Of a stretch of 64,000 nucleotides of DNA, positions 2,560 to 62,514 are shown piece after piece (position 1 is the first letter of the stretch; every line of letters starts with the position of its first letter). The position numbers and the translations under genes were made by a program. The stretch lies in NCBI GenBank assembly GCA_944386325.1, contig CALXAP010000005.1, positions 32,377 to 96,376 of the forward strand, read 5' to 3'. The notes below the pieces were generated by a model. The model was not told where the DNA came from and made no database searches. It saw only the letters and a list, made by a program, of their open reading frames with translations. Source of the DNA: an uncultured Clostridia bacterium (GTDB lineage Bacteria > Bacillota > Clostridia > TANB77 > CAG-508).

Positions 2560-4535
2560 GAGGGGTAGAAATGAATTTAAAAAAAGATGTAAAGTTTTTT
2601 TTAGTATTAATTATAGCAGTTTTGGTAATTACTGCAATTTCACTATATAAATTAAATATATCTGATAATTTATATAATTATGGAAATCAATTTGACGAAA
2701 GTAAAATAAACGAATATGCTACAATAGAAAATATTTCTGAAAATGAAGAAATTAATCAAAAATTTGTAGCTAAAGAAAATAATTTAGAAATAATATATTT
2801 ACAATTTAATCCTTTTAAAGATGAAGCAAATATTGACGGTAATGCTATTATAGGTTTAAAAGATGAAAATGGAAATATTATAAAAGAAGTTAATATAAAA
2901 TATAATGACATAAGAGAAAACAGTAATTATAAATTTAAATTTGATATACAAAAAGATTCTAAAGATAAAGAATATAATTTATATGTCAAATTTATAGACA
3001 AAATGGAGAATAATAATTTCTATTCAATAAGATATGATAATAAAATATCAGATGAAGGTTTAACAATAAACGGAAACACTATAAATGGAAAATTATGTTA
3101 CAAAGATTTATATAAAGATGAAGATAAAACTTTTATATATAATGCTTTTTTGATTGCAATAGTATTGATAGTATTAATATCTTCTGTGATTATATATTAT
3201 TCAAAAAATATAAATGTTGAAAAAGCTTTTTTATATACAGTTCCTGCAATATGCATAATATTTTTAATAGCTATGCCAATATTTAAAAATCATGATGAAA
3301 TATGGCATTGGTATAGAACATATGAGGTTGCTGAAGGTGCTTTAATATCAGGAGTTAATGGAACAACAATGCCAGAGGCTGTATATTCTGTAATGCCATT
3401 AGAAGAATGGGAAGGAATTAAATATAGTACATTAAAAGAAAAAAAACAGATAGTTTTAGATGAGACAAAAGAAGCATTTATAAGTGCAGGAACAGCATCT
3501 GTATATTCACCTATACAATATATTCCTCAAACAATAGGAATATTATTAGGAAAAATATTTACAGATAATATATTAAGTATAGGTTATATGGCAAGAATAT
3601 TTAATATGATAATAGCTATACTGCTAACATTTTTGGCAATAAAAATCATACCATTTGGTAAAAAGATTATACTTTTACTTATGTATATTCCTATAATAAT
3701 AGAAGGATTTACATCACTTTCTCCAGATGCAATGACAATATCAGTATCATTTTTATTTATTGCATATGTATTTAATTTGAAATTTAATCCAGATATTAAA
3801 CAAATAAATATAAAACATAAAGTTATACTTACAATATTATCAATAATAATTGCTTTATGTAAAATAGTATATATTCCATTAGTTGGATTGCTAATGTTAT
3901 TACCAAAAGAAAAATTTAAAAATACTAAACAAAAATGGATTAATATTATATTAATAGGAGGAATTGCATTAGTAATAAATTTAATATGGCTTAAAATTTC
4001 GGCATCATATTTAACTGATTTTAGAGGAGGAGATTCTAAATTTCAGGTATTAAATATATTAATGCATCCAATAAATTATATGCAAATGCTACTATATTCT
4101 CTTGACTTATATGGTAATAATTATATATTATCAATGTTTGGTTCAAATTTAGGTTGGGGAGAATTAGTAAATTTAAATTCAATAATACCATATGCATTAT
4201 TTATATTATTAATAGGAATTACTATTATTGAAAATGATATTAAAGATAAGTTCAATGTATTTGATAAGATAATAATTATATTAATAATATTAGCAATAGG
4301 AGGATTAATATTTACAAGTTTATATGTACAATGGACAACTGTTGGAAGTACAAGTATTCAGGGCGTCCAAGGTAGATATTTATTACCAATTCTACCGCTT
4401 ATTGCAATTCTTGTAGGAAGTTGTATAAAAGTGAAAAATAATTATAAAGAAGAAAATATAATAAAAACAATAGCTATAACAGGAATGATTTTGCAAATAG
4501 GAGTTATATTATCAATAGTAAATGTTCATTTATAA
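2547..4535 (+). CDS. Large polytopic membrane protein, putative GT-C-like glycan transferase.
   Basis: 662 aa. N-terminal TM anchor, a soluble domain of about 180 aa, then about 10 TM helices. Start codon overlaps the upstream gene (ATGA-style), suggesting an operon. Confidence 0.4.
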   Translation: MLFLRGVEMNLKKDVKFFLVLIIAVLVITAISLYKLNISDNLYNYGNQFDESKINEYATIENISENEEINQKFVAKENNLEIIYLQFNPFKDEANIDGNAIIGLKDENGNIIKEVNIKYNDIRENSNYKFKFDIQKDSKDKEYNLYVKFIDKMENNNFYSIRYDNKISDEGLTINGNTINGKLCYKDLYKDEDKTFIYNAFLIAIVLIVLISSVIIYYSKNINVEKAFLYTVPAICIIFLIAMPIFKNHDEIWHWYRTYEVAEGALISGVNGTTMPEAVYSVMPLEEWEGIKYSTLKEKKQIVLDETKEAFISAGTASVYSPIQYIPQTIGILLGKIFTDNILSIGYMARIFNMIIAILLTFLAIKIIPFGKKIILLLMYIPIIIEGFTSLSPDAMTISVSFLFIAYVFNLKFNPDIKQINIKHKVILTILSIIIALCKIVYIPLVGLLMLLPKEKFKNTKQKWINIILIGGIALVINLIWLKISASYLTDFRGGDSKFQVLNILMHPINYMQMLLYSLDLYGNNYILSMFGSNLGWGELVNLNSIIPYALFILLIGITIIENDIKDKFNVFDKIIIILIILAIGGLIFTSLYVQWTTVGSTSIQGVQGRYLLPILPLIAILVGSCIKVKNNYKEENIIKTIAITGMILQIGVILSIVNVHL

Positions 4536-5899: not shown

Positions 5900-6179
5900 A
5901 TTACCACCTAACTTAAAATTATATATGATATTCTATAATAAAATTAACTCCAACTTTACAGGTAGTACTTGCAGTATAAAATTTTTTTGTATAAAAAAAT
6001 ATATAAATGTAGAAAATTTGATATTATAGCTAGAAAAATAAATATTTTAACACATGAATTAGTAACAATATAAAAATTATTAAATATTATATAATATTAT
6101 AACTTATAAAGATACAATTATTATTAAAAGTTATTTGATAAATTTTTATAGAGTTAAATTAGCTCAAATGGAGGTTTTT

Positions 6180-10856: not shown

Positions 10857-11673
10857 TGAATGCTTAAAAATAGAAAAAAGTATAGTAAATACATATAAAA
10901 AAACAATTTGGAGTAAATTTATAAAAGGAGTAAAAGAATTTGAATTAATAAAAGATGGAGATAAAATAGCTGTTTGTATTTCAGGTGGAAAAGATTCAAT
11001 GCTTATGGCAAAGTGCCTACAAGAACTAAAAAAACATAGAAAAATGAACTTTGAATTATTGTTTTTGGTTATGAATCCAGGATATAACGATTATAATATG
11101 GAGAAAATAATAAAAAATGCTGAATTATTAAATATACCAATAACTGTGTTTAAAACAAATATATTTGATGTTGTAGAAAGAGTAGAAGATAATCCATGTT
11201 ATTTATGTGCAAGAATGAGAAGAGGATATTTATATAAAGAAGCCCAAAGATTAGGATGTAATAAAATAGCTTTAGGTCATCATTTTGATGATGTAATTGA
11301 AACTATATTATTAGGTATGTTTTATGGAGCTCAATTTCAAACAATGATGCCAAAATTACATAGTACATATCATGAAGGGATGGAATTAATAAGACCAATG
11401 TATTATGTTAAAGAAAAAGATATATTAAGATGGGTAAAACGAAATAATTTAGATTTTATAAAATGTGCATGTAAGTTTACAAAAAATTGCGATAGTAGTA
11501 ATTCAAAAAGAGTAGAAATAAAAGAATTAATAAATAATTTAAGACAAGTATATGAAAATATTGATATAAATATTTTTAACAGTACAAAAAATGTAAATTT
11601 AAATACTGTGATATCATATAAAAAAGAGGGAAAAACATATAATTTTCTTGATAAATATGATGAAAAAAGCTAA
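10846..11673 (+). CDS. ttcA: tRNA 2-thiocytidine biosynthesis protein TtcA-like (PP-loop ATPase).
   Basis: PP-loop CISGGKDS plus Cys motifs CYLCARMRRG and CKFTKNC. Overlaps tcdA, suggesting an operon. Confidence 0.6.
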   Translation: MISDECLKIEKSIVNTYKKTIWSKFIKGVKEFELIKDGDKIAVCISGGKDSMLMAKCLQELKKHRKMNFELLFLVMNPGYNDYNMEKIIKNAELLNIPITVFKTNIFDVVERVEDNPCYLCARMRRGYLYKEAQRLGCNKIALGHHFDDVIETILLGMFYGAQFQTMMPKLHSTYHEGMELIRPMYYVKEKDILRWVKRNNLDFIKCACKFTKNCDSSNSKRVEIKELINNLRQVYENIDINIFNSTKNVNLNTVISYKKEGKTYNFLDKYDEKS

Positions 11674-12553: not shown

Positions 12554-12580
12554 AGCCTAGCAATTGCTGGGCTTTTTTTT
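12554..12580 (+). terminator. Rho-independent terminator.
   Basis: GCCTAGCAATTGCTGGGC hairpin followed by a T9 run. Confidence 0.65.
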
Positions 12581-12712
12581 ACATTATAGAAAATTACATT
12601 TTCTATAATGTAAAAATATGGTATACAGAAAAATCTTGTATATTTCTTGTACATCTTAAATTAATGTGATTAATATAAAAAATAGGGAAGAGATATAGCA
12701 AAGCTAGGTTTG
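12581..12712 (+). ncRNA. Conserved intergenic element, copy A. Candidate structured RNA or regulatory module, homologous to 31006-31138.
   Basis: About 80% identity with copy B over roughly 130 bp. Two hairpins carry compensatory substitutions. The element sits upstream of a + strand gene in both copies. Confidence 0.35.
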
Positions 12713-15999: not shown

Positions 16000-16296
16000 C
16001 TAATTTTTTAATCTAATTAAAACGGCTATACCTAATAATACTAATAAAATTCCTATAACAATTAAAAGTATACTTAATATATTATTTAAACCTAAATTTG
16101 ATTCAGCTAGTGAAGAATTACTATTAACAGCAGTTCTTGAAGCACTTGAGCTTGAAGTAGATGATGTTGTATATGTATTTGTGCTTGAATTATTATAATT
16201 ATTACTATTTGTATCCAAATTTGTAGCATATATATTTATTGGAATAATTGATATCAATAATGTTGTAAAAATAAACAATTTTAATTTTTTAAACAT
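16000..16296 (-). CDS. Small Ser/Thr/Asn-rich surface protein with signal peptide and C-terminal TM anchor.
   Basis: 98 aa: N-terminal hydrophobic signal, low-complexity S/T/N region, C-terminal LLIVIGILLVLLGIAVLI anchor. Confidence 0.35.
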   Translation of the reverse strand: MFKKLKLFIFTTLLISIIPINIYATNLDTNSNNYNNSSTNTYTTSSTSSSSASRTAVNSNSSLAESNLGLNNILSILLIVIGILLVLLGIAVLIRLKN

Positions 16297-16417: not shown

Positions 16418-16446
16418 TTGTAGGGGCGAACATTGTTCGCCCGCAC
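16418..16446. repeat. GC-rich REP-like palindrome GGGCGAACA-T-TGTTCGCCC, family copy 1 of 5.
   Basis: Perfect 9 bp inverted repeat in about 25% GC context. On the minus strand it is followed by a T-run 3' of uvrB. Confidence 0.7.
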
Positions 16447-16510
16447 TACATAGGCATTTCTCAAAAAATTGAACATATAAATTTTTCTCTGTAAAAAATA
16501 TATATAATAA

Positions 16511-18475
16511 TTAATTATTATTATATTCTTCTAATTCTTTAATTTTATCTCTAAGTTCCGCAGCTTTTTCAAATTCCATATTTCTTGCATGTTTAAGCAT
16601 TTCATCAGTTAATTTGTTAATAATACTTTCAATAGATTCATTTTTATCAATATCATATTTAGTTTGTATATCATCTACAATTGTTGCTTTTATTGTATCA
16701 CGAATTGATTTTTTAATTGTTTTTGGTGTAATACCATGCTCAGTATTGTATTGTTGTTGTATTTTTCTTCTTCTATTTGTTTCAGAAATAGCTTTTTCCA
16801 TAGATTCTGTTAATTCATCTGCATACATTATAACTTTTCCTTCAGTATTTCTAGCAGCACGACCTATAGTTTGAATCAAAGAACGCTCTGAACGCAAAAA
16901 TCCTTCTTTATCTGCATCTAATATAGCAACAAGAGATACCTCTGGAATATCAAGACCTTCTCTTAACAAATTAATTCCAACTAAAACATCAAATTTACCA
17001 AGTCTTAAATCTCTTATTATTTCCATTCTTTCTAGAGCTTTTATTTCTGAGTGCATATACCTAACATTTATGTCTAGACCTTTTAAATAATTAGTTAAAT
17101 CCTCAGCCATTTTTTTAGTTAAAGTTGTAACAAGTATTCTTTCATTTTTTTCAACTCTTATTCTAATTTGTTCAATTAAATCATCAATTTGGTTAGTTAC
17201 AGGTTTTACTTCAATTTCAGGGTCAAGAAGACCAGTAGGTCTTATGATTTGTTCAACTATACCATCTTTACCAGACTTTTCTTTTTCATAATCTGCAGGT
17301 GTAGCACTAACAAATATACATTGATTTATTTTATTTTCAAATTCATCAAATTTTAAAGGCCTGTTATCATAAGCAGATGGCAACCTAAATCCATAATCAA
17401 TTAATGATTTTTTACGTGCTCTATCTCCATTATACATAGCTCTTACTTGAGGAATTGTAACATGAGATTCATCTATTAATAAAAGAAAATCTTTTGGGAA
17501 ATAATCCATTAATGTAAATGGAGCACTTCCTGGCTCTCTACCACTGATATGTCTTGAATAATTTTCGATACCTTGGCAAAAACCAGTTTCTTTTAGCATT
17601 TCCATATCAAAATTAGTTCTTTCTTCAATTCTTTGAGCTTCTATTAATTTATCATGTTCTTTGAAATATTTAATTCTTTCCTCTAATTCTTTTTCAATAG
17701 TTTGAATAGCATGTTCTTTTTTATTTTCTGTTGTAACATAATGTGAATTAGGAAAAATAACAATATGATTTCTGATTCCAATAGTTTTACCATTTAATGG
17801 ATTAATTTCAGAGATTTTTTCTATTTCATCTCCCCAAAATTCTATTCTTATAGCACTTTCATTAGTATTTGAAGGATATACTTCTACAATATCTCCTTTT
17901 GCACGAAAATGACCTCTTTTAAAATCTATTTCATTTCGCGTATATTGCATACTAACTAATCTTTTTAAGATTTCATTTCTAGGTTTATTCATACCTGGTC
18001 TAAGAGAAATAACCATATTTTCATAATCAATTGGATCTCCAAGACCATATATACAAGAAACAGATGAAACTATAATTACATCATTTCCTTCAAACAAACT
18101 AGCAGTAGCAGAATGTCTTAATTTATCTATTTCATCATTTACAGAAGAATCTTTTTCTATATAAGTATCTGATGATGCAATATATGCTTCTGGTTGATAA
18201 TAATCATAATATGATACAAAATATTCAACATGATTTTCTGGGAAAAATTCTTTAAATTCTGAATAAAGTTGTCCAGCTAAAGTTTTATTATGTGCAAGTA
18301 CAAGTGTTGGCTTTTGAACATTTTGAATTATATTTGCCATAGTAAATGTTTTTCCAGAACCTGTAACTCCTAAAAGTGTTTGAAATTTTTTGCCTTCTTC
18401 AATACCTTTTGACAAAAAATCTATTGCTTGTGGTTGGTCACCTGTAGGTTTATATTCTGAATGTAATTTAAACAT
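16511..18475 (-). CDS. uvrB: Excinuclease ABC subunit B.
   Basis: GVTGSGKTF Walker A, helicase motifs, and the C-terminal UvrB/UvrC interaction motif ([15 protein letters not shown]). Confidence 0.9.
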
Positions 18476-18827: not shown

Positions 18828-19499
18828 GTGAATTATTATAATTTAAAAATAGTTGCATTATTAAAACAAGATTTAGATAATTTTAGTGCTTATGAAAAAA
18901 TATCTAATTTAATATCTTTATCAATGTTAAAAGACAATAACTTAAAGCAGATACATGAGCAAAATACATATAAAAACTATGTGTTTTGTAATTTATATCC
19001 AATTGAAAAAGATTCAATATATAAAAAGAATAACATTTATACTTTTGATTTAAGAGGTATAGAAATAGAAAAAATATTAAAGTTAAAACAAGTTATGAAT
19101 AATGCAGAAAATGATTATTTAAAAGTAATTCAAATTATTTTTCAAACAAATCAGCAAAGAGAAATTAAGAAATTAATTACTTTAACTCCTACTATTATAA
19201 CTACAGAAAAAGGAGATTATGATATAAAAGATAATTTAGAATTTGTTAAGCAAAGAATACTTGCAAACACGCAAAAAAAATATAAGAATATCTTTAAAGA
19301 TAATGTAAATATTGATTTTATAAAAGATATAAAGAAAACTAATGTTAAACCAATAAAAATACCTTATAAAAATATAAATATACTTGGAAATAAGTTTGAA
19401 TTATTTATAAATGAAGATAAAATGTCACAAGATTTAGCATTTCTTATATTATCAATTGGATGTCTAGAAAAAAATGCAATAGGTTTTCGGATTTTGTAA
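18828..19499 (+). CDS. cas6: CRISPR endoribonuclease Cas6, type I-B.
   Basis: First gene of the cas operon. Size and position are typical of I-B Cas6. GTG start. Confidence 0.6.
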   Translation: MNYYNLKIVALLKQDLDNFSAYEKISNLISLSMLKDNNLKQIHEQNTYKNYVFCNLYPIEKDSIYKKNNIYTFDLRGIEIEKILKLKQVMNNAENDYLKVIQIIFQTNQQREIKKLITLTPTIITTEKGDYDIKDNLEFVKQRILANTQKKYKNIFKDNVNIDFIKDIKKTNVKPIKIPYKNINILGNKFELFINEDKMSQDLAFLILSIGCLEKNAIGFRIL

Positions 19500-19520
19500 A
19501 GCAAGGTAGGAGGTGAGAAA

Positions 19521-22239
<2,719 letters not shown>

Positions 22240-22253
22240 AAAGAGAGAAAAAA

Positions 22254-23024
22254 ATGGAAACTATAAAATTTGAATTAAAATCAAATATGGCTATTATTAA
22301 AAAGCCTGATAGTAATGAAACATATTATACATATAATTTTCCTCATAAAATTATGCTTTTAGGCTTATTAGGTGCTATTATTGGGTTAAATGGATATAAT
22401 TATTATTCTTTTCAAAAATGTATAGGAAACAAAGTAAAAGAAATTCCTGAGTTTTATGAAAAATTAAAAAATTTAAAAATTGCTATTGTTCCAAAGATTG
22501 GTAAGGATAATTTTTCAAGGAAAATTCAGAGTTTTAACAATTCAGTAGGATATGCATCTAAGGAACAAGGGAATAATCTTATTGTAAAAGAGCAGTGGTT
22601 AGAAAAACCAAGATGGATAATATACATATTAGAAAATGATAGTGAAGAATATAGAAAAATAAAAGAATATCTTATAAATAAGAAATGCGAATATATTCCA
22701 TATATAGGAAAAAATGATCACTTTGCGGATATATCAAATGTAAAAGTAGAGAATGTGTCTAATATAAAAGAAAAAATTTCAGTAATAAATAGTATTTTTG
22801 AAGAGAAAATTGCAGAACTAAAAGATAATTTATTTGATGAAATATTAGGATTTGATAATAGGGAAAAAAAGGAATATTTATATAAGGAATTATTGCCAAT
22901 AGAATTAAATGAGAAAATAGGATATAGTAAGTTTTCTAATTTTATGTTTACAAACCAAGAATTAGATGTTAAAGAAAATATAAATATTTATAGAGTTCAG
23001 AATGAAAATATATATTATTTTTAA
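22254..23024 (+). CDS. cas5: Cas5, type I-B.
   Basis: 256 aa protein following cas7. N-terminal beta-hairpin-like sequence typical of Cas5. Confidence 0.6.
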   Translation: METIKFELKSNMAIIKKPDSNETYYTYNFPHKIMLLGLLGAIIGLNGYNYYSFQKCIGNKVKEIPEFYEKLKNLKIAIVPKIGKDNFSRKIQSFNNSVGYASKEQGNNLIVKEQWLEKPRWIIYILENDSEEYRKIKEYLINKKCEYIPYIGKNDHFADISNVKVENVSNIKEKISVINSIFEEKIAELKDNLFDEILGFDNREKKEYLYKELLPIELNEKIGYSKFSNFMFTNQELDVKENINIYRVQNENIYYF

Positions 23025-23056
23025 CATTATGAAGAAAGGAAAGTAATAATATTTAT

Positions 23057-25465
23057 ATGAATAATGAATATATAGAAAAGTTATTAAAAAATTTAAAACA
23101 TAAATATTATGCACATACAAAAGATAATGGAGAATGTGAATTATTAATTTCACATTTAGATTTAACTTATAAATATTATAAAAAAATGGAGAAAGATAAA
23201 GATTTAGATTATATAATCAAGAATATTATTGAAAAAACATTTAATGTTAATGGTGTAATTACAGAAGAAATATATGAATTATTCAAGCAGGCTATTTATT
23301 ATCATGATATAGGAAAAATAAATCCACTATTTCAAAAAAATAAAATGAATAATGATTTAAATATAAAAGTTGATAATGCTGATGATACTCATGCAGCATT
23401 ATCAGCTAGAATATATATAGATTCAATAATAAATGAAATAAAAGTTAATAGCAAAAGAAATCAATATGAAAATATAATTATCTTATATTGTGGCTACTAT
23501 TTTGGATATATTATTTCAAGGCACCATACAAAATTAGAAGCATTAAGCAATTTATTGGATTCTATAAAAGATAAGAAAATACCAGAAATACCAGAACCGT
23601 TGATAAATATATATGAAAAACAATTGAATATGGATAGTTTAAATAAAATATTAGAAAGACTGAAAGTTAATGCTTTAGAAATGTATATATTATGCAAAGT
23701 TCTATATTCATGTATAATATCAGCAGATTTTTATGCTACTTATGATTATATGACAGGAAAAGAAGTAAATTTTAAAATTGATAAGAAAAATGATTTATTT
23801 AAGGAATATGAGGAATCAGAACTTTTTGAAATAATAAAAAAATATGAGAGAAGAGAAATAAAATTAGAAGGAATAAATAAATTAAGAAGTGATATGTTTT
23901 TAGAAGCGGAAAGTACATTAAAGAAAAATTTAGATAAAAATATATTTTATTTAGAAGCTCCCACTGGAGCTGGAAAGACAAATATGGCAATTAATTTAGC
24001 GAAAATATTATATGAAAATATAGAAAATATCAATTCTATACATTATATATTTCCGTTCAATAATATTATAGAACAAACTGATAAAACATTTAGTGAATAT
24101 TTTAGTAAATATGAAGATTATGTAGTTATTAATTCTATTTCTGCAATGGCAATAGATGAAAATGAAAAATTAGATTATGAAATGATTTATATGAGGAATA
24201 TTTTCAATCAATATCCAATTTTAATAACATCTCATATTAATTTATTTAATACTTTTTTTGGAACAGGTAAAGAAAAAAATTATAGTTTGTATAATTATGT
24301 TAATAGTATTGTTATATTAGATGAAATTCAGTCTTACTCCAATAATATTTGGTATGAAATGATAGAGATGTTTGATAAATATGCAAAATTATTAAATATA
24401 AAGTTTATTATAATGTCTGCTACCTTACCAAGACTTGACAAATTACTGAATAAAAATATATCAAGTTTTTGTCAATTAATTTGTAATACTAAAAAATATT
24501 ATGAAAATAAAATTTTTGGAAGAAGAGTTATATTAAATTATGAATTATTAGATAAAAAAATTAATATTGATCTATTAATTGACGAAATATTAAAACATAA
24601 AAATAGAAAAGTTTTAATAGAACTAATAAAAAAAGATAGTGCTGAAAAATTATATGAAAAACTAAAAGATGAGTGTAGAAATACATATATTATGACAGGA
24701 GATGATAATAAGTATTCAAGACAAAAAATAATAGAAAAAGCAAAGCAGTGTAAAGAAATGATTTTAGTAGCAACTCAAACCATTGAAGCAGGAGTTGATA
24801 TAGATATGGATGTAGGATTTAAAGATATATCATTTCTTGATAGTGAAGAACAATTCATTGGTAGGATAAATAGGTCAAATAAAAAAGAGAATTGTTTAGC
24901 ATATTTTTTTAATTTAGATGATGCAAATATTATTTATAAAAAAGATAAAAGATTAGAATATAATTTAAATAAAAATGAAAGTAGAAAATGGCTAGAAAAT
25001 AAAAGATTTGATTTGTTTTATGATAAAATTTTAGAAAGAATAAAAGAAGAAAGTTCAAAATATACTAATGAAAATATTGAAGAGTTTAGAAAATATTGTA
25101 AGATTATTAATTATAAGAAAATCGAAGAAAAAATGCAATTAATAAAAACCAATTCAATAGATATTTTTATTAATTACACAATTAAAATAGATGGACAAGA
25201 AATTAATGGTAAAGATGTTTTTAGAAAATATATAGAAATATACAACAATAAAAATATTTCATATTCAGAAAGAAAAGTAAAGTTATCGCAAATAGCTGAA
25301 AATTTAAATTTATTTGTATACTCTTTACCAATAAACAGTATGCGTCTAATAGAAGGTGAAAAGATATGTGGAATGTTTTATATTGAAGAAGGAACAAAAT
25401 ATATAAAAGATGGAAGATTTAACAGAGGAAAGTATATAGAAGAAGGAGAAGGACTATTTTTATGA
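23057..25465 (+). CDS. cas3: Cas3 HD nuclease plus DEAD/DEAH helicase.
   Basis: HD-domain motifs near the N-terminus (H...HD.GK), Walker A APTGAGKT, and DEAH-like VILDEIQ. Confidence 0.85.
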   Translation: MNNEYIEKLLKNLKHKYYAHTKDNGECELLISHLDLTYKYYKKMEKDKDLDYIIKNIIEKTFNVNGVITEEIYELFKQAIYYHDIGKINPLFQKNKMNNDLNIKVDNADDTHAALSARIYIDSIINEIKVNSKRNQYENIIILYCGYYFGYIISRHHTKLEALSNLLDSIKDKKIPEIPEPLINIYEKQLNMDSLNKILERLKVNALEMYILCKVLYSCIISADFYATYDYMTGKEVNFKIDKKNDLFKEYEESELFEIIKKYERREIKLEGINKLRSDMFLEAESTLKKNLDKNIFYLEAPTGAGKTNMAINLAKILYENIENINSIHYIFPFNNIIEQTDKTFSEYFSKYEDYVVINSISAMAIDENEKLDYEMIYMRNIFNQYPILITSHINLFNTFFGTGKEKNYSLYNYVNSIVILDEIQSYSNNIWYEMIEMFDKYAKLLNIKFIIMSATLPRLDKLLNKNISSFCQLICNTKKYYENKIFGRRVILNYELLDKKINIDLLIDEILKHKNRKVLIELIKKDSAEKLYEKLKDECRNTYIMTGDDNKYSRQKIIEKAKQCKEMILVATQTIEAGVDIDMDVGFKDISFLDSEEQFIGRINRSNKKENCLAYFFNLDDANIIYKKDKRLEYNLNKNESRKWLENKRFDLFYDKILERIKEESSKYTNENIEEFRKYCKIINYKKIEEKMQLIKTNSIDIFINYTIKIDGQEINGKDVFRKYIEIYNNKNISYSERKVKLSQIAENLNLFVYSLPINSMRLIEGEKICGMFYIEEGTKYIKDGRFNRGKYIEEGEGLFL

Positions 25466-25959
25466 AAATAACAGGGACAGTTATAAATTATTATTTCCAT
25501 TGTAAAAGACAGTGTTATCTATTTGCAAATAAAATTAATTTAGAAGATAATTCAGAAGATGTTAGAATTGGTAGAGTATTACATGAAATAAAATCTAAAG
25601 ATGGAAAAAATACAGAAATAAAATATGAAGATATGGTAGTAGATAAAGTAACATCAAAATATGTAGAAGAATATAAAAAAAGTGATTCAGATACAGAAGC
25701 TGCTAAAATGCAGTTATTGTTTTATTTAAAAAACTTAAGAGATAAGGGAATTTATAAAAAAGGAAGATTAATTTACAATGAGAAGAATAATAAAGAAAGT
25801 AAAAAATCAGAGATAGTAGAATTAAATGATAAAGATATAGAGAAATTAAATAATTGTATTAAAGAAATAGAAATATTAATAAATAGAAATACTGTGCCAG
25901 ATGTAGAAAAAGAAAATAAATGTAAAAAATGTGCATATTATGAATACTGTTATATATAA
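25462..25959 (+). CDS. cas4: Cas4 RecB-like nuclease.
   Basis: N-terminal Cys (YFHCKRQCYL) and a C-terminal CKKCAYYEYC 4Fe-4S cluster motif. Overlaps the cas3 stop codon. Confidence 0.8.
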   Translation: MKITGTVINYYFHCKRQCYLFANKINLEDNSEDVRIGRVLHEIKSKDGKNTEIKYEDMVVDKVTSKYVEEYKKSDSDTEAAKMQLLFYLKNLRDKGIYKKGRLIYNEKNNKESKKSEIVELNDKDIEKLNNCIKEIEILINRNTVPDVEKENKCKKCAYYEYCYI

Positions 25960-25982
25960 AATCAAAAGTTTGGGAGAAAAGA

Positions 25983-26984
25983 ATGAAATCAGAAACTAAA
26001 TATATATTTTCAAGAGGAGACTTGTCTAGACAAGATTTTAGCATTAAATATAAAAATGATAAGGGAAATTTTTATTTACCAATAGAGAAGATAAAAGAAT
26101 TATATTGTTTTAATGATATTACAATATCTACAAAATTGTTAGATATATTGTCAACAGCTGGTATTGTAGTACATTTTTTTAATTATTATGAAAATTATGT
26201 AGGAACATTTTACCCAAAAAAGTCATTAATTAGTGGAAGGTTGGTTGTAAAACAATCACTTAAGTTTGAAAATAACAGACTAATAATAGCAAAAGCAATA
26301 GTAAATGGAATTGCTAAAAATATAAGAAATGTTTTATACCATTATTATAGACATGGCATAAAAGAACTAAAAAGTTTTATAGATTTTTGTAATAAAGATG
26401 TAGAAAAATTATTAGATAAAACTAAAGATATAAAACAAATCTTATCAATTGAAGGGAAAATATGGTCAAACTTTTATTCATCTTTTAAATATTTTTTGCC
26501 AGAGGATTTTATAATAAATAAGAGAGTTAAAAGACCACCAGATAATCCAATGAATGCTATGATATCATTTGGAAATACATTATTATATACTAAAACAATT
26601 TCTCAAATATATAATACACATTTAGAACAATCAATTTCTTTTTTACATGAACCGAGCGAAGCAAGGTTTTCTTTAAGTTTAGATTTAAGTGAAGTATTTA
26701 AACCAATTATAGTTTTTAAGACAATATTTGATTTAGTAAATAATAAAAAAATAAAAGTCGAAAAACATTTTGAAGAAAAACTGAATTATTCATTATTAAA
26801 TGAAGAAGGAAAAAAGATTTTTATAGAAGCTTTTGAAAACAGGATTAATCAAACATTTGAACATCCAAAATTAAAAAGAAAAATTACATATAAGCAAGCA
26901 ATAAGATTAGATGGATATAAGCTTATAAAGTATATTATAGAAGATAAAGAATTTATTCCATTTGATTTGGAAAAAAAGGAGTAA
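25983..26984 (+). CDS. cas1: Cas1 integrase.
   Basis: 333 aa. Conserved Cas1 acidic residues and position immediately before cas2. Confidence 0.8.
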   Translation: MKSETKYIFSRGDLSRQDFSIKYKNDKGNFYLPIEKIKELYCFNDITISTKLLDILSTAGIVVHFFNYYENYVGTFYPKKSLISGRLVVKQSLKFENNRLIIAKAIVNGIAKNIRNVLYHYYRHGIKELKSFIDFCNKDVEKLLDKTKDIKQILSIEGKIWSNFYSSFKYFLPEDFIINKRVKRPPDNPMNAMISFGNTLLYTKTISQIYNTHLEQSISFLHEPSEARFSLSLDLSEVFKPIIVFKTIFDLVNNKKIKVEKHFEEKLNYSLLNEEGKKIFIEAFENRINQTFEHPKLKRKITYKQAIRLDGYKLIKYIIEDKEFIPFDLEKKE

Positions 26985-26985
26985 A

Positions 26986-27273
26986 ATGAATAAAAAAATA
27001 AATTATAATTATGTATTTTTGTTTTATGATATAGAAGAAAAAAGAGTAAATAAAGTTTTTAAAAAATGTAAAAAATATTTAAATCATTGGCAAAAATCTG
27101 TATTTAGAGGGGCATTAACAAATTCTCAGATAATGGAATTAGAAAATGAGTTGAAACTAATAATAAATAAAGAGAAAGATTTTATATCTATTATAAAAAT
27201 AATGGATTTTAAAACAATTGGAGAAACTACTTTGGGAAATAATAAGATAAATACAGAAGATATATTTCTATGA
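26986..27273 (+). CDS. cas2: Cas2.
   Basis: MNKKINYNYVFLFYDIEEKRVNKV is the typical Cas2 N-terminal beta-strand. About 95 aa. Confidence 0.8.
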   Translation: MNKKINYNYVFLFYDIEEKRVNKVFKKCKKYLNHWQKSVFRGALTNSQIMELENELKLIINKEKDFISIIKIMDFKTIGETTLGNNKINTEDIFL

Positions 27274-27411: not shown

Positions 27412-30280
27412 GTTAAACTATAACATGAGATGTATTTAAATGAGACAATCACATTCGATTGTCTTTCTTTGTGGTATGTTAAACTATAACATGAGATGTA
27501 TTTAAATAGAGTATCCATGCACATCTGACATTTGTTATAGAAAGTTAAACTATAACATGAGATGTATTTAAATTGAGACCGATGAAAATGATAAGCGCCG
27601 TCTTTATGTTAAACTATAACATGAGATGTATTTAAATGCCATTTTTTTATCAGCTTCTTCTTTAATTTTCTTAGTTAAACTATAACATGAGATGTATTTA
27701 AATATTAAATGCTGAAGGATATGGATTAGGTGGTGCAACGTTAAACTATAACATGAGATGTATTTAAATAATTTTCGGTCATGCTTTTATTTATAATAGC
27801 ATTAAGTTAAACTATAACATGAGATGTATTTAAATTATTTTTCAGCTTTTTTTAAACCCCTACTACAAAAAGTTAAACTATAACATGAGATGTATTTAAA
27901 TCCGCGGAACTTATGTACAAAATACTAGATACTTTGGGTTAAACTATAACATGAGATGTATTTAAATATGCTTATGATACTTTTGAGACAATTAAGACTT
28001 AAAGTTAAACTATAACATGAGATGTATTTAAATATAACAATATTTTTGTTAGTATTTGGAACAGGTAGAGTTAAACTATAACATGAGATGTATTTAAATA
28101 GGTGTTATTTCTCCTCGTTGGGTTGATTTGTTTGAGTTAAACTATAACATGAGATGTATTTAAATCATTCTGTAGATATATATGTAAGATTTATAAGAGA
28201 TAGTTAAACTATAACATGAGATGTATTTAAATCTGCTCTTTTTCCTGATTTAGCTAATATATTTACTTGTTAAACTATAACATGAGATGTATTTAAATCC
28301 ATATTGAGAAGTAAAAGCATCCGAAAAAGAGTTATGTTAAACTATAACATGAGATGTATTTAAATTCTTCAGAAGCCTGAGAAGACAGAAAGTCATTTTG
28401 GTTAAACTATAACATGAGATGTATTTAAATTCGGCCTCATGAAAGGGCTTGAAGATTTGTATAAAAAGTTAAACTATAACATGAGATGTATTTAAATAAA
28501 ACATCCTTATTAACAAAACAAGTAACAATATAAGTTAAACTATAACATGAGATGTATTTAAATAATAATTTTGTAACAACAAAAAATATCGCCTGTATTG
28601 TTAAACTATAACATGAGATGTATTTAAATTACTACGTCAAACTCGTATATTTCAACAAGTAAATCGTTAAACTATAACATGAGATGTATTTAAATTAGTA
28701 GAAGTGATTATAATGATGTTAAAAATTTTGTGTTAAACTATAACATGAGATGTATTTAAATCCTACTATACCCCATAAGTTTGTTGCAGATAGCTCTGTT
28801 AAACTATAACATGAGATGTATTTAAATAAAACATACTCAACTACACGCCATTCATAATCTTTAGTTAAACTATAACATGAGATGTATTTAAATTTTTCAT
28901 GTGTAAGTATAAAAGTAATAATATCATCAAGTTAAACTATAACATGAGATGTATTTAAATGAAGAAGAAATTAGACGCATTAGTTTAAGTCGAACTAAGT
29001 TAAACTATAACATGAGATGTATTTAAATTTACTATAATTATAATTAAATATTATATCAGAATTTGTTAAACTATAACATGAGATGTATTTAAATCCGTAT
29101 TGAGCAGTCCAAACATCTGTAAAACTGTTGTGTTAAACTATAACATGAGATGTATTTAAATTATTTTTCAGCTTTCTTTAAGCCTCTAGAACAAAAATGT
29201 TAAACTATAACATGAGATGTATTTAAATCTATCATTAGCCTGAGAATTAAGAAAATCGTTTTGGTTAAACTATAACATGAGATGTATTTAAATAACATTT
29301 TAGAATTGTAATAACCATATTCATTTTTAGTTAAACTATAACATGAGATGTATTTAAATATATCAAATTTCTTGTAATATGTTTCAGTTTTTTGGGTTAA
29401 ACTATAACATGAGATGTATTTAAATTATAGATTGGCGGAACCTTTCGCAAGAGAGGGTTCCGTTAAACTATAACATGAGATGTATTTAAATAGGTGTTAT
29501 TTCTCCACGTTGGTCTGATTTATTTGAGTTAAACTATAACATGAGATGTATTTAAATAACATTTTAGAATTATAATATCCAAACTCATTTTTAGTTAAAC
29601 TATAACATGAGATGTATTTAAATCAATTCATATCACAGACAGTTTTATAATCGCAAAAGTTAAACTATAACATGAGATGTATTTAAATATATACAACTGG
29701 AGGAGGAGCGGGTTGCTTTGGAAGGTTAAACTATAACATGAGATGTATTTAAATGACTTAATAAATAAAAACCGAAAAGAACCAGTGGTAGGTTAAACTA
29801 TAACATGAGATGTATTTAAATTTAAAACTTGCGTATACGTACGCTTTATCACCAAGGTTAAACTATAACATGAGATGTATTTAAATTCTACATATGATAG
29901 AAGATACATAGATGAAAAAACAGTTAAACTATAACATGAGATGTATTTAAATTGTATATTCATTTAAACTAATCCATTCTTCCATTTTGTTAAACTATAA
30001 CATGAGATGTATTTAAATGAAACTCCATTTTCGCCACCTAAAAATGTATTAAGTTAAACTATAACATGAGATGTATTTAAATTTTACATTCTAGTATGTT
30101 TATATTAATACTTTAGATGTTAAACTATAACATAAGATGTATTTAAATATTAAATGCTATTGCAAGAATACTATATAAAGACAAGTTAAACTATAAGATG
30201 AGATGTATTTAAATTAAGAATTTGATAATTCTACAGGTAAAAAGAAAATTGTTAAACTATAACATGATGTATTAACACTA
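27412..30280 (+). CRISPR. CRISPR array: about 44 copies of the 30 bp repeat GTTAAACTATAACATGAGATGTATTTAAAT with 35-37 bp spacers.
   Basis: Perfect periodicity of about 66 bp. The three leader-distal repeats are degenerate (30123, 30185, 30251), fixing the leader at the cas2 side. Confidence 0.97.
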
Positions 30281-30975: not shown

Positions 30976-31005
30976 ATTTATACTATTAATTTAGTATAAA
31001 TTTTT

Positions 31006-31138
31006 TACTTTATAGAAATTTTCATTCCCTATAAAGTAAAAAATAGATGCACAGAAAAATCTTATATACTTCTTGCTAGACCTTAAATTAATGTAACAAA
31101 AATTAAAAATTAGGAATAAGTCTAGTGAAACTAGATTT
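31006..31138 (+). ncRNA. Conserved intergenic element, copy B (homolog of 12581-12712).
   Basis: Same two covarying hairpins and the conserved core ACAGAAAAATCTT(A/G)TATA(C/T)TTCTTG...CTTAAATTAATGT. Lies about 100 bp upstream of the alarmone synthetase gene. Confidence 0.35.
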
Positions 31139-42323: not shown

Positions 42324-42363
42324 AAGTTTTGTTAGAGCTAAAACAGCTCAGATGGAGGTTTAA

Positions 42364-42862: not shown

Positions 42863-43322
42863 CGCTTGCAAAAGATTTATATCTTGATAAAATAAACCTA
42901 CTTATTGAACCTGCTACTATTAAATTTAAAAACATTGCAGCACAAAAGTTTCTAGGCCAAGTTGAAAAGAAATTATTTAATACATAAGCAATATTTCCAT
43001 TGCTTAATAGTCCACCTATAATTGTCATAATAATAGACATCATTGTTACAATAAAAAATGTATTGAATAATATATGTGCATTTTGGCTATCGTTACGACT
43101 TGTAAATTTAGCTATTAATTTACCATTTATGAAATGAACAATAGTATTTTCAATAATAAAAGCTATTACAAAAATCATAGGAAAAGCTTTTGAAGTAGCT
43201 AGTATAGAATTAAAATTAAATCCATTCATATTAATAGAAATGTTTAGTAAAGCCATTCCATAAGCCATAATAAAGCACATACAAATTCCATATAATAATC
43301 CTTCTTTTTTATTTGTTGGCAT
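42840..43322 (-). CDS. Integral membrane protein, unknown function.
   Basis: 160 aa with four predicted TM helices. RBS AGGAGG upstream on the minus strand. Confidence 0.4.
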   Translation of the reverse strand: MPTNKKEGLLYGICMCFIMAYGMALLNISINMNGFNFNSILATSKAFPMIFVIAFIIENTIVHFINGKLIAKFTSRNDSQNAHILFNTFFIVTMMSIIMTIIGGLLSNGNIAYVLNNFFSTWPRNFCAAMFLNLIVAGSISRFILSRYKSFASVRNSIND

Positions 43323-43489
43323 AAAAATTCCTCCTTTATATATAACTTAAAAAGCGCGTGAGCTTCAACTGGATTTACGCAATTAAAGCTACACGCCGAC
43401 TAAAGAATTATAACATATTAAAAAAATTTATGTAAGTAAAAAATTAAAAAATTTTTATTTGAGAAGTAACTATTTGTTACAATTCACGG

Positions 43490-43760
43490 CATACGATTTT
43501 GATATAATAATATTTCCTAAATTTTTTGGCTCAATACGATATTTAAGAATTTGTAAAATAATTTAATGAGCCTCTTTCATTCAGGCTCAAAATCAAAGAT
43601 TTTGCCCATGAACATTCCTCATTAAATTATATAACAAATTCTATAAACATCTCCAATCGCATTCAAAATTTATTCTATATTATTGTATCAAAATCTATTA
43701 ATTATAATATAGAAAAAATCAAAATAACGTCAGTAGGGGCGAACAGTGTTCGCCCGCACT
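43490..43760 (+). repeat. Roughly 265 bp direct repeat, copy 1, ending in REP-like palindrome copy 2 (43737-43755).
   Basis: About 92% identical to 44537-44795. Contains an internal hairpin GAGCCTCTTTCATTCAGGCTC. Confidence 0.85.
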
Positions 43761-43803
43761 ACAAAGTCATTTCTTAAAAAAAATAAGTATATTAATTAAT
43801 AAA

Positions 43804-44517
43804 TTGGAGAAAGAATATATGAGAAAATATGTAATTATAGATAAAAGAATGAGAGATAAAGAAAAAGAATATTTAAACAAAATCGGATATAATACTTTAG
43901 AAATAAATTATCACCCAGAAGTATATGAAGAGATTTCATCACATGTAGACATTTTTGTTTGTAAAATAAATAATAATATTTTTATAGCACCTAATATAAA
44001 AGAAATAGAATTACAAAATAAAACAATAGGAAAAAGTAAAGTATTAGAAAAGTATCCTTTAGATATAAAATATAATGTTGCAAGTATAGGAAACTATGTT
44101 ATACATAATTTTAAATATACAGATAAAACAATACTAGATTATGCAGAAAATAATGAATTAAAAAAGATTAATGTTAAACAAGGATACACAAAATGTAGTA
44201 TATCTGTAACAAGTAAAAATTCTTGTATAACTTCAGATAAATTAATAGCAAATCAATTATTAAAAAATGGTATTGATGTATTATATGTAAAAGAAAACAA
44301 TATAAACTTGCTGGATAAAGAAGGAAATCTAACACAAATGAGAGGTTTTATAGGAGGAGCTACAGGAATAATAGAGGATAAATTCATTTTATTCGGTGAT
44401 AGTAAGTATTTGGATAATAGAGAAAGAATATTAAAACATATAAATAAATATGGATTAGAATTAGTAGAATTTAAAGGTGAGTTAATACATGATTATGGGG
44501 GAATTGTATTAGTGTAA
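43804..44517 (+). CDS. Hypothetical protein (237 aa) bracketed by the 265 bp direct repeats.
   Basis: ORF with no recognisable catalytic motif. Gly-rich segment FIGGATGII near the C-terminus. Confidence 0.4.
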   Translation: MEKEYMRKYVIIDKRMRDKEKEYLNKIGYNTLEINYHPEVYEEISSHVDIFVCKINNNIFIAPNIKEIELQNKTIGKSKVLEKYPLDIKYNVASIGNYVIHNFKYTDKTILDYAENNELKKINVKQGYTKCSISVTSKNSCITSDKLIANQLLKNGIDVLYVKENNINLLDKEGNLTQMRGFIGGATGIIEDKFILFGDSKYLDNRERILKHINKYGLELVEFKGELIHDYGGIVLV

Positions 44518-44536
44518 ATGTTATAGTTAACGTCTG

Positions 44537-44795
44537 TAAGATTTTAATATAATAATATTTCATAAATTTTTCGGCTCAATACGATGTTTAAGAATTTGTA
44601 AAATAATTTAATGAGCCTCTTTCATTCAGGCTCAAAATCAAAGATTTTGCCCATGAACATTCCTCATTAAATTATATAACAAATTCTAAAAACATCTCCA
44701 ATCGCATTCAAAATTTATTCAACATTATTATATCAAAATCTTAAACCATAATATAAAAAAATCTAATGTAGGGGCGAACATTGTTCGCCCGCACA
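44537..44795 (+). repeat. Roughly 265 bp direct repeat, copy 2, ending in REP-like palindrome copy 3 (44772-44790).
   Basis: See copy 1. It lies immediately 3' of the bracketed gene. Confidence 0.85.
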
Positions 44796-44998
44796 ACATA
44801 GAAATTACTAAAAACTGAATATATAATTATAGTAGTGAATAGTAATAGAAAATGTAAAAAACATGTAAATTTAAGTAAGAAATATTTACAAAAATATCAA
44901 ATTATGATATATAAATACTATGTTATTGTTTTAGGATTATAGTAGGGAGCGGTCAGATACTGAATAATTAAATAATAAAAATAAGAAAGGGTTAATAT

Positions 44999-45184
44999 AT
45001 GGATAAAAAAGATATCATTATATATATACTAATGGTTCTACTAATTTTTACAATTGGAGTTATAGGTTATTTTATAGGAAAAGAAGTAGCTAAAGAAGAA
45101 TATAGAGACATCCCAATATATTCAGAAATTTATACTTTGGATAATGAATCTACATTAAATATGACAAATAATACAATAGAATAA
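44999..45184 (+). CDS. Small membrane protein (61 aa).
   Basis: One TM helix. Preceded by AAGGG RBS-like sequence. Followed by terminator-like AAAAAGAGGTTTTCTATTTTAGAATACCTCTTTTTT. Confidence 0.3.
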   Translation: MDKKDIIIYILMVLLIFTIGVIGYFIGKEVAKEEYRDIPIYSEIYTLDNESTLNMTNNTIE

Positions 45185-45291
45185 GTAAAAAAAGAGGTTT
45201 TCTATTTTAGAATACCTCTTTTTTAAGTAATATCGACAAATTAAAATATATTATGATATAATTCTAAAAAACGATATTAAGGAGGAAGTAT

Positions 45292-48972: not shown

Positions 48973-49091
48973 AAAATTGAAAAAACTATTGCAATTACTA
49001 AAAAAATAGTATATAATACTAATGCAATTTAAAATAGAAACTTTAAGAGCAGGTGTAAACCTGCTCTTAAAAAGTATAATGGAGGAATATT

Positions 49092-55412: not shown

Positions 55413-55413
55413 A

Positions 55414-55453
55414 GGAAAAATCTAAGTTAGAGATTTTTCCTCTAATTTTTTTA
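55414..55453 (+). terminator. Rho-independent terminator.
   Basis: GGAAAAATCT-AAGTT-AGAGATTTTTCC hairpin followed by a T-run. Confidence 0.6.
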
Positions 55454-55580
55454 TGTAAAAAATTGCTATAAGAAATTAATAGAAAAAATGGGCTATACCC
55501 CATTTGGTGAGTTTTATTTCCGCCCTACCATTAGGCTTTATATTTTTTTATATAAAATAACAAAATTAGCAGCATAAATG

Positions 55581-55606
55581 TAGGGGCGAACATTGTTCGC
55601 CCGCGC
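55581..55606. repeat. REP-like GC-rich palindrome, copy 4 (GGGCGAACA-T-TGTTCGCCC).
   Basis: Identical core to copies 1 and 3. Lies between nrnA and truB. Confidence 0.7.
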
Positions 55607-55644
55607 TCTAGAAGAATTTCTTAAAATATCAAATATTAAGGAGG

Positions 55645-56520: not shown

Positions 56521-56661
56521 AATAGTGAATAATGAATAGTGAATGGTGAATAATGCAATTATGCCAATATAATACAAAACTATTAATATTAAATGTGGTG
56601 GCAAACACAATGTCATTAAGTTAAGAACATTTATAATATTATAAAATTAATATGTAAGATG

Positions 56662-56750
56662 TAGGGGCGAACAGTGTTCGCCAGCCCTTCGAAGAAATTT
56701 CTCATTATGTAATAATTTACGGCATACGAATTTGATATAATATTATATCA
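56662..56750. repeat. Degenerate REP-like palindrome (copy 5) followed by a partial copy of the 5' box of the 265 bp repeat (ACGGCATACGAATTTGATATAATATTAT).
   Basis: GGGCGAACA-G-TGTTCGCCa, then about 30 bp matching the start of the 43490 and 44537 repeats. Confidence 0.6.
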
Positions 56751-62425: not shown

Positions 62426-62514
62426 TATAAATTTACTAGAAAAAATGAGTAAATAAAGTACTATGGGTTTAAATAAAAATAGAAAGAGCAATCATTGCTC
62501 AAATGGAGGTTGTT

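Follow-up and report, generated by a model that had tools for sequence, protein, structure and literature searches.

Why should a strongly A+T-rich bacterial genome keep, between its genes, several nearly identical copies of a G+C-rich palindrome? The palindrome in question, GGGCGAACA-N-TGTTCGCCC, occurs five times in a 64,000-nt stretch of an uncultured Clostridia bacterium (contig CALXAP010000005.1, positions 32,377 to 96,376 of the forward strand; the whole stretch is referred to as the window), four times exactly and once with a single mismatch. An earlier reading, made from the sequence alone, had located these five palindromes and likened them to repetitive extragenic palindromes (REPs). 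Both the positions and the likeness held up on closer analysis, and we consider it probable that the palindromes are GTAG-tagged REPs of the type recognised by REP-associated tyrosine transposases (RAYTs). The identification is drawn from the GTAG tag, from compensatory changes in the stems, from inverted doublets of the element in other genomes, and from REPtrons, in which a RAYT gene carries this REP inside and/or beside it, in five other genomes. Our confidence that the elements are currently mobilised in the lineage of the window is lower than our confidence in what they are.

The window was searched with the query GGGCGAACANTGTTCGCCC, and 100 dinucleotide-preserving shuffles of the window served as the null. 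None of the 100 shuffles contained any match, giving an expectation of 0 against the 5 copies observed, which are as follows.

16420..16466, plus strand: REP copy 1, GTAG followed by GGGCGAACATTGTTCGCCC and the flank GCACTACATAGGCATTTCTCAAAA; exact match to the query at 16424-16442; its neighbours are uvrB (16511-18475, minus strand) and a 98-aa open reading frame (ORF; 16000-16296, minus strand).
43733..43779, plus strand: REP copy 2, GTAG followed by GGGCGAACAGTGTTCGCCC and GCACTACAAAGTCATTTCTTAAAA; exact match at 43737-43755; 63 nt 5′ of the ATG of the DUF6873 gene.
44768..44814, plus strand: REP copy 3, GTAG followed by GGGCGAACATTGTTCGCCC and GCACAACATAGAAATTACTAAAAA; exact match at 44772-44790; 3′ of the DUF6873 gene.
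55580..55626, plus strand: REP copy 4, GTAG followed by GGGCGAACATTGTTCGCCC and GCGCTCTAGAAGAATTTCTTAAAA; exact match at 55584-55602; between an nrnA-like DHH gene and truB.
56661..56707, plus strand: REP copy 5, GTAG followed by GGGCGAACAGTGTTCGCCA and GCCCTTCGAAGAAATTTCTCATTA; one mismatch (CGCCA) within 56665-56683; 3′ of truB.

Aligned, the copies read GTAG-GGGCGAACA(T/G)TGTTCGCCC-GC(A/G)C..(A/T)AG..ATT(T/A)CT(C/T)AAAA, which agrees with the shared context described in the sequence-only reading. GTAG lies immediately 5′ of the stem in all five, always on the plus strand; neither this tag, which is the decisive feature, nor the common orientation had been remarked on in the sequence-only reading. 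Apart from the mismatch of copy 5 the cores vary only at the loop base (T or G). The 19-mer is 63–68% G+C (12 or 13 of 19 positions) in a window of 24.6%; a background of about 25% had thus been estimated correctly, whereas the figure of about 75% given for the element was too high. When up to 8 mismatches were allowed, no intermediate or decayed ungapped copy appeared in the window, the two additional matches (7–8 mismatches) being at the level of the shuffles. The REP copies are also nearly the sole G+C-rich perfect hairpins of the window, the other being an unrelated hairpin at 49047.

All five copies are intergenic, as had been claimed, in a sequence of which ~90% is coding according to the gene table. 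They lie downstream of uvrB, on both sides of the DUF6873 gene and on both sides of truB, at successive distances of 27313, 1035, 10812 and 1081 nt; copy 4 sits within the gene row nusA-infB-rbfA-nrnA-truB. As single-stranded DNA the copies fold with free energies of −7.4 to −11 kcal/mol (z = −2.8 to −4.9) into a hairpin with a stem of 8–9 bp and a loop of 1–3 nt. Copy 1 is the most stable (−11 kcal/mol, z = −4.9), and its GTAG pairs with a downstream CTAC. Such pairing, with a CTAC located 3 bases beyond the stem, occurs in two of the window copies and resembles the double-foot form of one RAYT subclass, as sketched in the passages of PMC6006769 used here. An inverted downstream partner, which would make a doublet of the kind called a REP doublet forming hairpins (REPIN) or a bacterial interspersed mosaic element (BIME), was found for none of the five window copies and for none of four copies at the corresponding loci of sister species. 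One window copy has the sequence CCGCCCTAC ~50 nt upstream, a possible remnant of an inverted arm.

To place the element in a wider context, the bare 19-mer was scanned against one genome per species; the counts in this and the following paragraph refer to the matches listed by that scan. At least 117 stretches of public genomes had the exact 19-mer; most were from Clostridia, among them Oscillospiraceae, Ruminococcus, Gemmiger, Fonticella, Geosporobacter, Anaerosolibacter and Epulonipiscium. Other matches came from Bulleidia, a Coriobacteriaceae bin, Veillonellaceae, Chitinispirillales, two cyanobacteria and a Hydromonas bin, so that the identical 19-mer is found in many families, and in a few other phyla, in genomes ranging from 27% to 64% G+C. 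Of 140 exact copies, 114 (81%) were tagged, with GTAG 5′ or CTAC 3′ of the core, and only 2 copies had both. We then generalised the core to GTAGGGGCG-NN-CA-N-TG-NN-CGCCC and required the GTAG tag. The two NN pairs were complementary in 142 of 143 copies, including 26 with a combination other than AA/TT; the stem variants were AA/TT, CA/TG, AC/GT, AT/AT, AG/CT, GC/GC and TT/AA.

An inverted partner within 160 nt, usually at 35–70 nt, was found for 46 of 117 tagged copies (39%), and these pairs are REPIN-like doublets, present for example in loci L018, L026, L028 and L097. GTAG was on the G-rich strand in 48 of 112 public copies, or 27 of 52 when counted per locus. Because the public loci have no strand bias, the uniform orientation of the window copies (5 of 5 with the G-rich strand as the plus strand) is no evidence for a rule across the family. 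Tandem arrangements were also seen: an Oscillospiraceae bin (L027) carries head-to-tail REP arrays at 2804-3144 and 212-292 with a period of 62–65 nt, and since the intervening segments are nearly identical, these are tandem REP clusters and not CRISPR arrays. In metagenome contigs, a scan for the TTCGAAG flank recovered two contigs of another organism of 29% G+C, each with one singlet copy, while the scan for the window-specific flank gave 0 matches.

The link to a transposase came from other genomes. A motif search of the ORFs in the retrieved loci identified a gene of ~160 codons in Fonticella tunisiensis (L049) and Geosporobacter ferrireducens (L108), with REPs of the window type around the gene and two further copies in frame inside it. 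Three more loci completed a set of five REPtrons, all with genes for proteins of 157–164 aa: L134 has one arm in the gene and three exact REPs of the window type just 3′ of it, L140 has one arm in the gene and one exact copy 19 nt past the stop codon, and L141 has both arms in the gene. The in-gene arms lie at these positions.

L049, 2379-2401 and 2548-2572: two in-gene REP arms (Fonticella tunisiensis).
L108, 6871-6893 and 7049-7071: two in-gene REP arms (Geosporobacter ferrireducens).
L134, 1844-1866: one in-gene REP arm.
L140, 1395-1417: one in-gene REP arm.
L141, 10115-10137 and 10289-10311: two in-gene REP arms.

The ~160-aa protein matches the Pfam family Y1_Tnp and the NCBIfam model NF047646 ('REP-associated tyrosine transposase', E = 9e-20). 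A profile built from 26 homologues matched a single PDB chain, that of the E. coli TnpA-REP (4ER8, E = 6.5e-10). At least 2,631 clusters of homologues (90% identity, E <= 1e-10) exist; those that carry an organism name are mostly from Clostridia, and some had already been named 'REP element-mobilizing transposase RayT' by their sources. Among 201 homologues examined, the arms encode the peptides VGANSVRP or CRGEHCSP before the HUH motif and GRT(M/L)FAPT after it, peptides that arise when the REP and its reverse complement are translated. The two arms therefore form an inverted pair, one on each side of the HUH motif, and 78 of the ~85 proteins that could be classified have the matching stem variant in both arms. 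The first arm has been lost from some RAYT genes. On the 3′ side of the Fonticella RAYT gene (L049, 2850-3800), a unit of ~340 nt is repeated, and each unit contains a double-foot REP (GTAG...CTAC) within a tiny ORF (MKRIYVGANTVRPYGGMGY); these units show that REPs generate spurious small proteins.

In the portions of PMC3733652, PMC6006769 and PMC8266576 drawn on here, RAYT-recognised REPs are defined by a GT[AG]G that sits at the base of a short G+C-rich hairpin. According to the sections of PMC8266576 and PMC3479197 that treat the enzyme, TnpA-REP binds the folded single strand, contacts GTAG, cleaves at a neighbouring CT or CA by way of a covalent intermediate on its tyrosine, and is able to rejoin the strands. 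In-frame REPs within the transposase gene are reported as unique to TnpA-REP subclass 2.4 in the cited part of PMC6006769, and that subclass is described there and in the corresponding part of PMC5581495 as common in Cyanobacteria and scattered over many phyla. Judging from their architecture, the clostridial RAYTs would belong to this subclass, which equals RAYT group 4.

We propose the following model. The unit has a G+C-rich stem of 8–9 bp with a loop of 1–3 nt, and GTAG serves as the guide tetranucleotide at its 5′ base; in the A+T-rich lineage the stem is followed by a loosely conserved tail of ~24 nt, GCNCT(A/T)C.AAG..ATTTCT. When single-stranded, the unit would fold into a hairpin that serves as the substrate of the HUH/Y1 transposase RAYT (TnpA-REP). 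By analogy with the characterised enzymes, RAYT would bind the hairpin and GTAG and cut and rejoin at an adjacent CT or CA, so that the element is multiplied or moved in trans. In the lineage of the window, where the REPs occur as single units with GTAG on the plus strand instead of as REPINs, a RAYT encoded elsewhere in the genome would have made the copies and would maintain them, and the conserved GCACTACA tail may carry the 3′ cleavage dinucleotide. The window copies would be long-lived residents, one of them older than the split from the sister species, and any effects on neighbouring transcripts would be secondary.

Several observations weigh against this identification or parts of it. 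The window lies in a 126-kb metagenome scaffold (ENA ERZ28615194), and ~9 kb of flank of the same lineage was added on each side. We searched for RAYT genes with a motif regular expression, with tblastn using two RAYTs, and with tblastn using one candidate, P0096, over all added loci. A cognate RAYT, which the sequence-only reading had envisaged, was not found by tblastn or by the motif expression in the 64-kb window or in the ~18 kb of added flank from the same lineage, nor was a homologue found in ~50 kb from sister species. Four RAYT candidates of A+T-rich composition (P0082, P0096, P0282 and P0296) proved to come from other organisms, on contigs of 34–44% G+C. The window copies are all singlets, whereas in Pseudomonas the doublet is regarded as the unit that moves. 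On NF047646 the RAYT homologues reach 71 bits, short of its curated cut-off of 80, and their placement in subclass 2.4 comes from shared architecture and not from a tree. Finally, the copy upstream of truB is conserved well past neutral expectation, which selection at the level of the host fits at least as well as selfish persistence does. The added ~9 kb on either side of the window held no further REP copy.

The history of individual copies could be followed in relatives. The window comes from an uncultured, spore-forming organism that has a SpoIIIA operon and PolC and recurs across many samples. We obtained sister loci L135, L136 and L138 through their TruB homologues (87%, 84% and 83% amino-acid identity, respectively). 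A REP occupies the nrnA-truB site in all four lineages, with T, G or C as the loop base, and its stem agrees with that of the window at 18 of 18 positions in L135, 18 of 18 in L136 and 17 of 18 in L138, where the one change, C to T, preserves a G-T (G-U) pair. Since synonymous sites are close to saturation in L136 and L138 (the 4-fold degenerate sites of truB are only 55–57% identical to those of the window) while the stem is intact, the nrnA-truB copy predates these splits and has been maintained. The flanks within this spacer are also conserved, at ~80–87% identity, so a stem of 18 nt is too short to demonstrate a constraint beyond that on the adjoining sequence.

A different picture emerged for the spacer 3′ of truB. 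It contains no REP in L136 (147 nt), a copy with 4 mismatches in L138, a perfect copy at another offset in L135, and the copy with 1 mismatch in the window; L136 has a degenerate REP copy at 12495. Copy 1 is kept in five strain contigs, with a loop change from T to A in L122. Strains L123 and L126 carry an extra REP with ~45 nt of 3′ flank in common with copy 1, and thus the duplicated segment exceeded the hairpin at least once. This extra REP is part of a 1.6-kb strain-specific insert located after the peroxiredoxin gene (window ~6885; L123 15803-17420, and L126), together with genes for NERD-domain and ASCH-domain proteins, and the window contig lacks the insert. The 3′ flank of copy 5, GCNCTTCGAAGAAA, also follows REPs in L028, L097, L135, L142 and L143 (A+T-rich bins and metagenome contigs). 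In L028 and L097 the tail of the window type is the start of the doublet spacer, so that the window singlets look like half-doublets or like units copied with part of the spacer. From these comparisons, the family mixes long residence at some sites with loss, decay or re-insertion at others, which is ordinary for REPs.

The nrnA-truB spacer has further features of its own. A segment of ~93 nt (window 55452-55545; L135 9807-9900) is absent from L136 and L138 and contains a terminator-like hairpin (55486-55505) along with CCGCCCTAC, the possible remnant of an inverted REP arm. The spacers of the window and L135 differ by a single base although the TruB proteins differ by 13%, and this near-identity suggests a recombination boundary.

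One explanation for the persistence at the nrnA-truB site is that the copies, or at least that one, are now host elements under selection, with an RNA hairpin that protects the upstream mRNA from 3′ exonucleases, marks a processing site or modulates truB translation; the REP origin would then be history only. The stem identities of 18/18, 18/18 and 17/18 against 55–57% at 4-fold sites (L136, L138), the presence of solely intact or near-intact copies in a window of 24.6% G+C, and the GUAG that read-through from the upstream gene would place 5′ of the hairpin for four of the five copies all fit such a role, and the background given in the cited part of PMC6006769 has E. coli REPs reportedly stabilising mRNA and affecting termination and translation. 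However, the whole nrnA-truB spacer is conserved (~80–87% in the flanks), leaving the stem not clearly more constrained over its 18 nt, and conservation is not general, as the copy downstream of truB is missing in L136 and decaying in L138. The ATTTCTT tail is predicted to pair only weakly with the ribosome-binding site of truB (ensemble frequency 0.02, z = −2.0), and an anti-Shine-Dalgarno role for the tail at truB was rejected on this ground. On balance we regard host exaptation as doubtful, though it deserves to be taken seriously. It is unlikely, in our judgment, that the copies are leftovers of a dead REP/RAYT system, one that no longer has a transposase in this lineage, and that they simply persist until eroded. 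The lack of a RAYT in ~82 kb of the window lineage or ~50 kb of sister species, the singlet state of all window copies and the decay in sister species (4 mismatches in L138; the degenerate L136 copy at 12495) would be expected of a dead family, and many E. coli strains are reported to have lost their REPtron (PMC3733652). Yet four of the five copies are perfect at 24.6% G+C with no partly decayed copy in the window, the extra L123/L126 copy with 45 nt of copy 1 flank and the perfect L135 copy at a new offset suggest fairly recent copying, and the sequence inspected is a small fraction of the genome. Less likely again is a self-seeding REP/RAYT pair that has been domesticated in places, in which gene transfer brings the REPIN and singlets, notably the nrnA-truB one, are kept by the host as structural signals in RNA or DNA. 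A RAYT gene that brings a ready-made REPIN when it is transferred could explain the identical 23-mer in genomes of 24% to 64% G+C, in Clostridia and beyond.

The remaining readings give the hairpin or the dyad a conventional regulatory function. The sequence-only reading had pointed to a T-run on the uvrB strand after copy 1 and to a possible terminator role; the T-run is real, and the role found no support. The hairpins are G+C-rich and stable, and copy 1 lies 65 nt past the uvrB stop codon, is followed on that strand by a run of 7 T and has an extended RNA fold of −22.6 kcal/mol. Nevertheless, that run starts 9 nt beyond the stem, and a scan of both strands for intrinsic terminators (a G+C-rich hairpin with a T-rich tract within 0–2 nt) called none of the five copies. 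The plus-strand sequence after the copies is A-rich, nrnA has its own terminator-like hairpin (55413-55441) 5′ of copy 4, and the REP lies in frame inside RAYT genes, where termination would harm. We therefore think it very improbable that the copies are intrinsic terminators, bidirectional or otherwise. An operator for a dimeric transcription factor, LexA-like or other, with the copies defining a regulon, seems scarcely credible to us. The core is a perfect 19-bp dyad with the pentamer half-sites CGAAC and GTTCG of the Firmicutes LexA (Cheo) box, CGAAC-N4-GTTCG, and four copies lie 45–230 nt 5′ of plus-strand genes. In contrast to the Cheo box, the spacer is 3 and not 4, just as the sequence-only reading had remarked in calling it a resemblance without a match; the G+C-rich stem extends past the half-sites, and the REP is 3′ of uvrB and not at its promoter. 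The window contains no Cheo box within 1 mismatch, and the neighbours of the copies are functionally unrelated (the DUF6873 protein, a 61-aa ORF, truB, a pilin-like protein and, on its downstream side, uvrB). The asymmetric GTAG, the compensatory stem changes, the inverted doublets and the RAYT linkage, seen across more than 100 genomes, argue for a hairpin element and not a duplex operator.

Two other candidates were rejected. A search of Rfam at the gathering score matched only the CRISPR repeats, and a permissive scan of 43300-45300 gave results at chance level, so no known RNA family accounts for the copies. They are also not CRISPR repeats, since their spacing is irregular and the real array of the window (27412-30148) has another repeat.

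Three of the five REPs adjoin a second repeat, which we call the B element, of ~220–235 nt with the terminal inverted repeats TTGATATAATAATAT and ATATTATTATATCAA. Two copies flank the DUF6873 gene, each just 5′ of a REP, and the window has these occurrences.

43486..43706, plus strand: B element copy, a repeat family with an inverted repeat recognised by alignment; ends ~27 nt before REP copy 2.
44531..44745, plus strand: second B element copy, 96% identical to the first; ends ~23 nt before REP copy 3.
56720..56749, plus strand: perfect palindrome GAATTTGATATAATATTATATCAAATTC, formed by the two B terminal inverted repeats joined directly, 37 nt beyond REP copy 5; in L138 the full element occupies this place.

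In L138 the element (10880-11100) has an interior ~99% identical to that of the window, though the 4-fold sites of L138 are only ~55% identical, and the element must accordingly be recently mobile or very strongly constrained. In three Clostridia of higher G+C content (L020 116; L083 7335; L090 230), a 20-mer from the B interior, TCAAAATCAAAGATTTTGCC, is found next to REPs or between them, which hints at BIME-like mosaics. The B element has no match in Rfam. It is associated with the REPs, perhaps without forming part of the REP unit.

Other repeats and loci were also noted in the window. A hairpin motif fused to the ribosome-binding site, AGAG(C/T)-N6-(A/T)GCTCA(A/G)ATGGAGGTT, occurs on the plus strand at 6150-6176, 42334-42360 and 62485-62511 (0 expected by chance), directly before the start codons of a peroxiredoxin gene, a 153-aa ORF and a SpoIIIAH-like gene. 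A type I-B-like cas operon (18828-27273; Cas7, Cas3, Cas4, Cas1 and Cas2 by Pfam) precedes a CRISPR array at 27412-30270, whose 30-nt repeats (Rfam CRISPR-DR3) number at least 42 and some of whose spacers, several in all, are alike. A 75-nt repeat at 12575-12649 and 31001-31075 (81% identical) opens with the long A+T-rich palindrome TTTTTTACATTATAGAAAAT...ATTTTCTATAATGTAAAAA and is probably a shared terminator plus flank.

Among the closest known systems are the GTAG-tagged REPs of Di Nocera et al. (2013, PMC3733652) and the REP/REPIN elements of Proteobacteria. Shared with them are the 5′ GTAG, a G+C-rich stem (6–13 bp in that description) with a loop of 2–3 nt, an occurrence in several extragenic copies (five in the window), sub-families related by compensatory changes, the linkage to RAYTs (here in other genomes), and an organisation as singletons, head-to-head or tail-to-tail dimers, or tandem clusters. 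The differences are that the host here is an uncultured, spore-forming member of the Clostridia of 24.6% G+C, whereas the main text of PMC3733652 contains neither 'Firmicutes' nor 'Clostridi...', and that every copy in the window is a singlet of the same orientation. Moreover, among the matches listed, many families and several phyla have the identical 19-mer in common, whereas classical REPs are described as species-specific.

The related loci, as distinct from the window, share with TnpA-REP subclass 2.4 (Quentin et al. 2018, PMC6006769) the in-frame REPs inside the transposase gene and the double-foot GTAG...CTAC forms, as far as the cited portion describes them; a RAYT of ~160 aa that lacks a C-terminal extension, and a scatter over many phyla with Cyanobacteria among them, are likewise features of that subclass, or RAYT group 4, in the passages of PMC6006769 and of Bertels et al. 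(2017, PMC5581495) used here. Those passages mention Clostridia, in the case of Bertels et al., for group 1 only, and in neither source did they describe arms that bracket the HUH motif as a co-varying inverted pair, as is the case here. The E. coli REP/BIME system with its TnpA-REP (4ER8) has the same enzyme fold family and a recognition unit of GTAG plus hairpin; it differs in its longer, bulged stem and its BIME mosaics, and the identity between the enzymes is low (profile E = 6.5e-10). The ends of IS200/IS605 elements and of their transposase-less derivatives, the palindrome-associated transposable elements (PATEs), are similar in having a 5′ guide tetranucleotide and subterminal hairpins that a Y1 HUH enzyme reads in single-stranded DNA. 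By contrast, the REP unit has no distinct left and right ends around a cargo and no tnpA or tnpB, being a single hairpin of ~25–50 nt.

To our knowledge, REP/RAYT systems have been studied almost wholly in Proteobacteria. The system described here is of a known kind, a GTAG-type REP with its RAYT, and what is less familiar is the host group, the breadth of the identical 19-mer and the co-varying in-gene arms. Clostridia of the gut and the environment commonly carry one well-defined REP, which is intact even at 24.6% G+C. For annotation, this REP explains isolated G+C-rich islands and spurious small ORFs (with peptides such as VGANSVRPY) in such genomes. The family is also present in cultured hosts, namely Fonticella tunisiensis, Geosporobacter ferrireducens and Anaerosolibacter carboniphilus, and it offers a natural set of orthologous sites in which the element is present, missing or decayed, together with a transposase gene that contains its own substrate.

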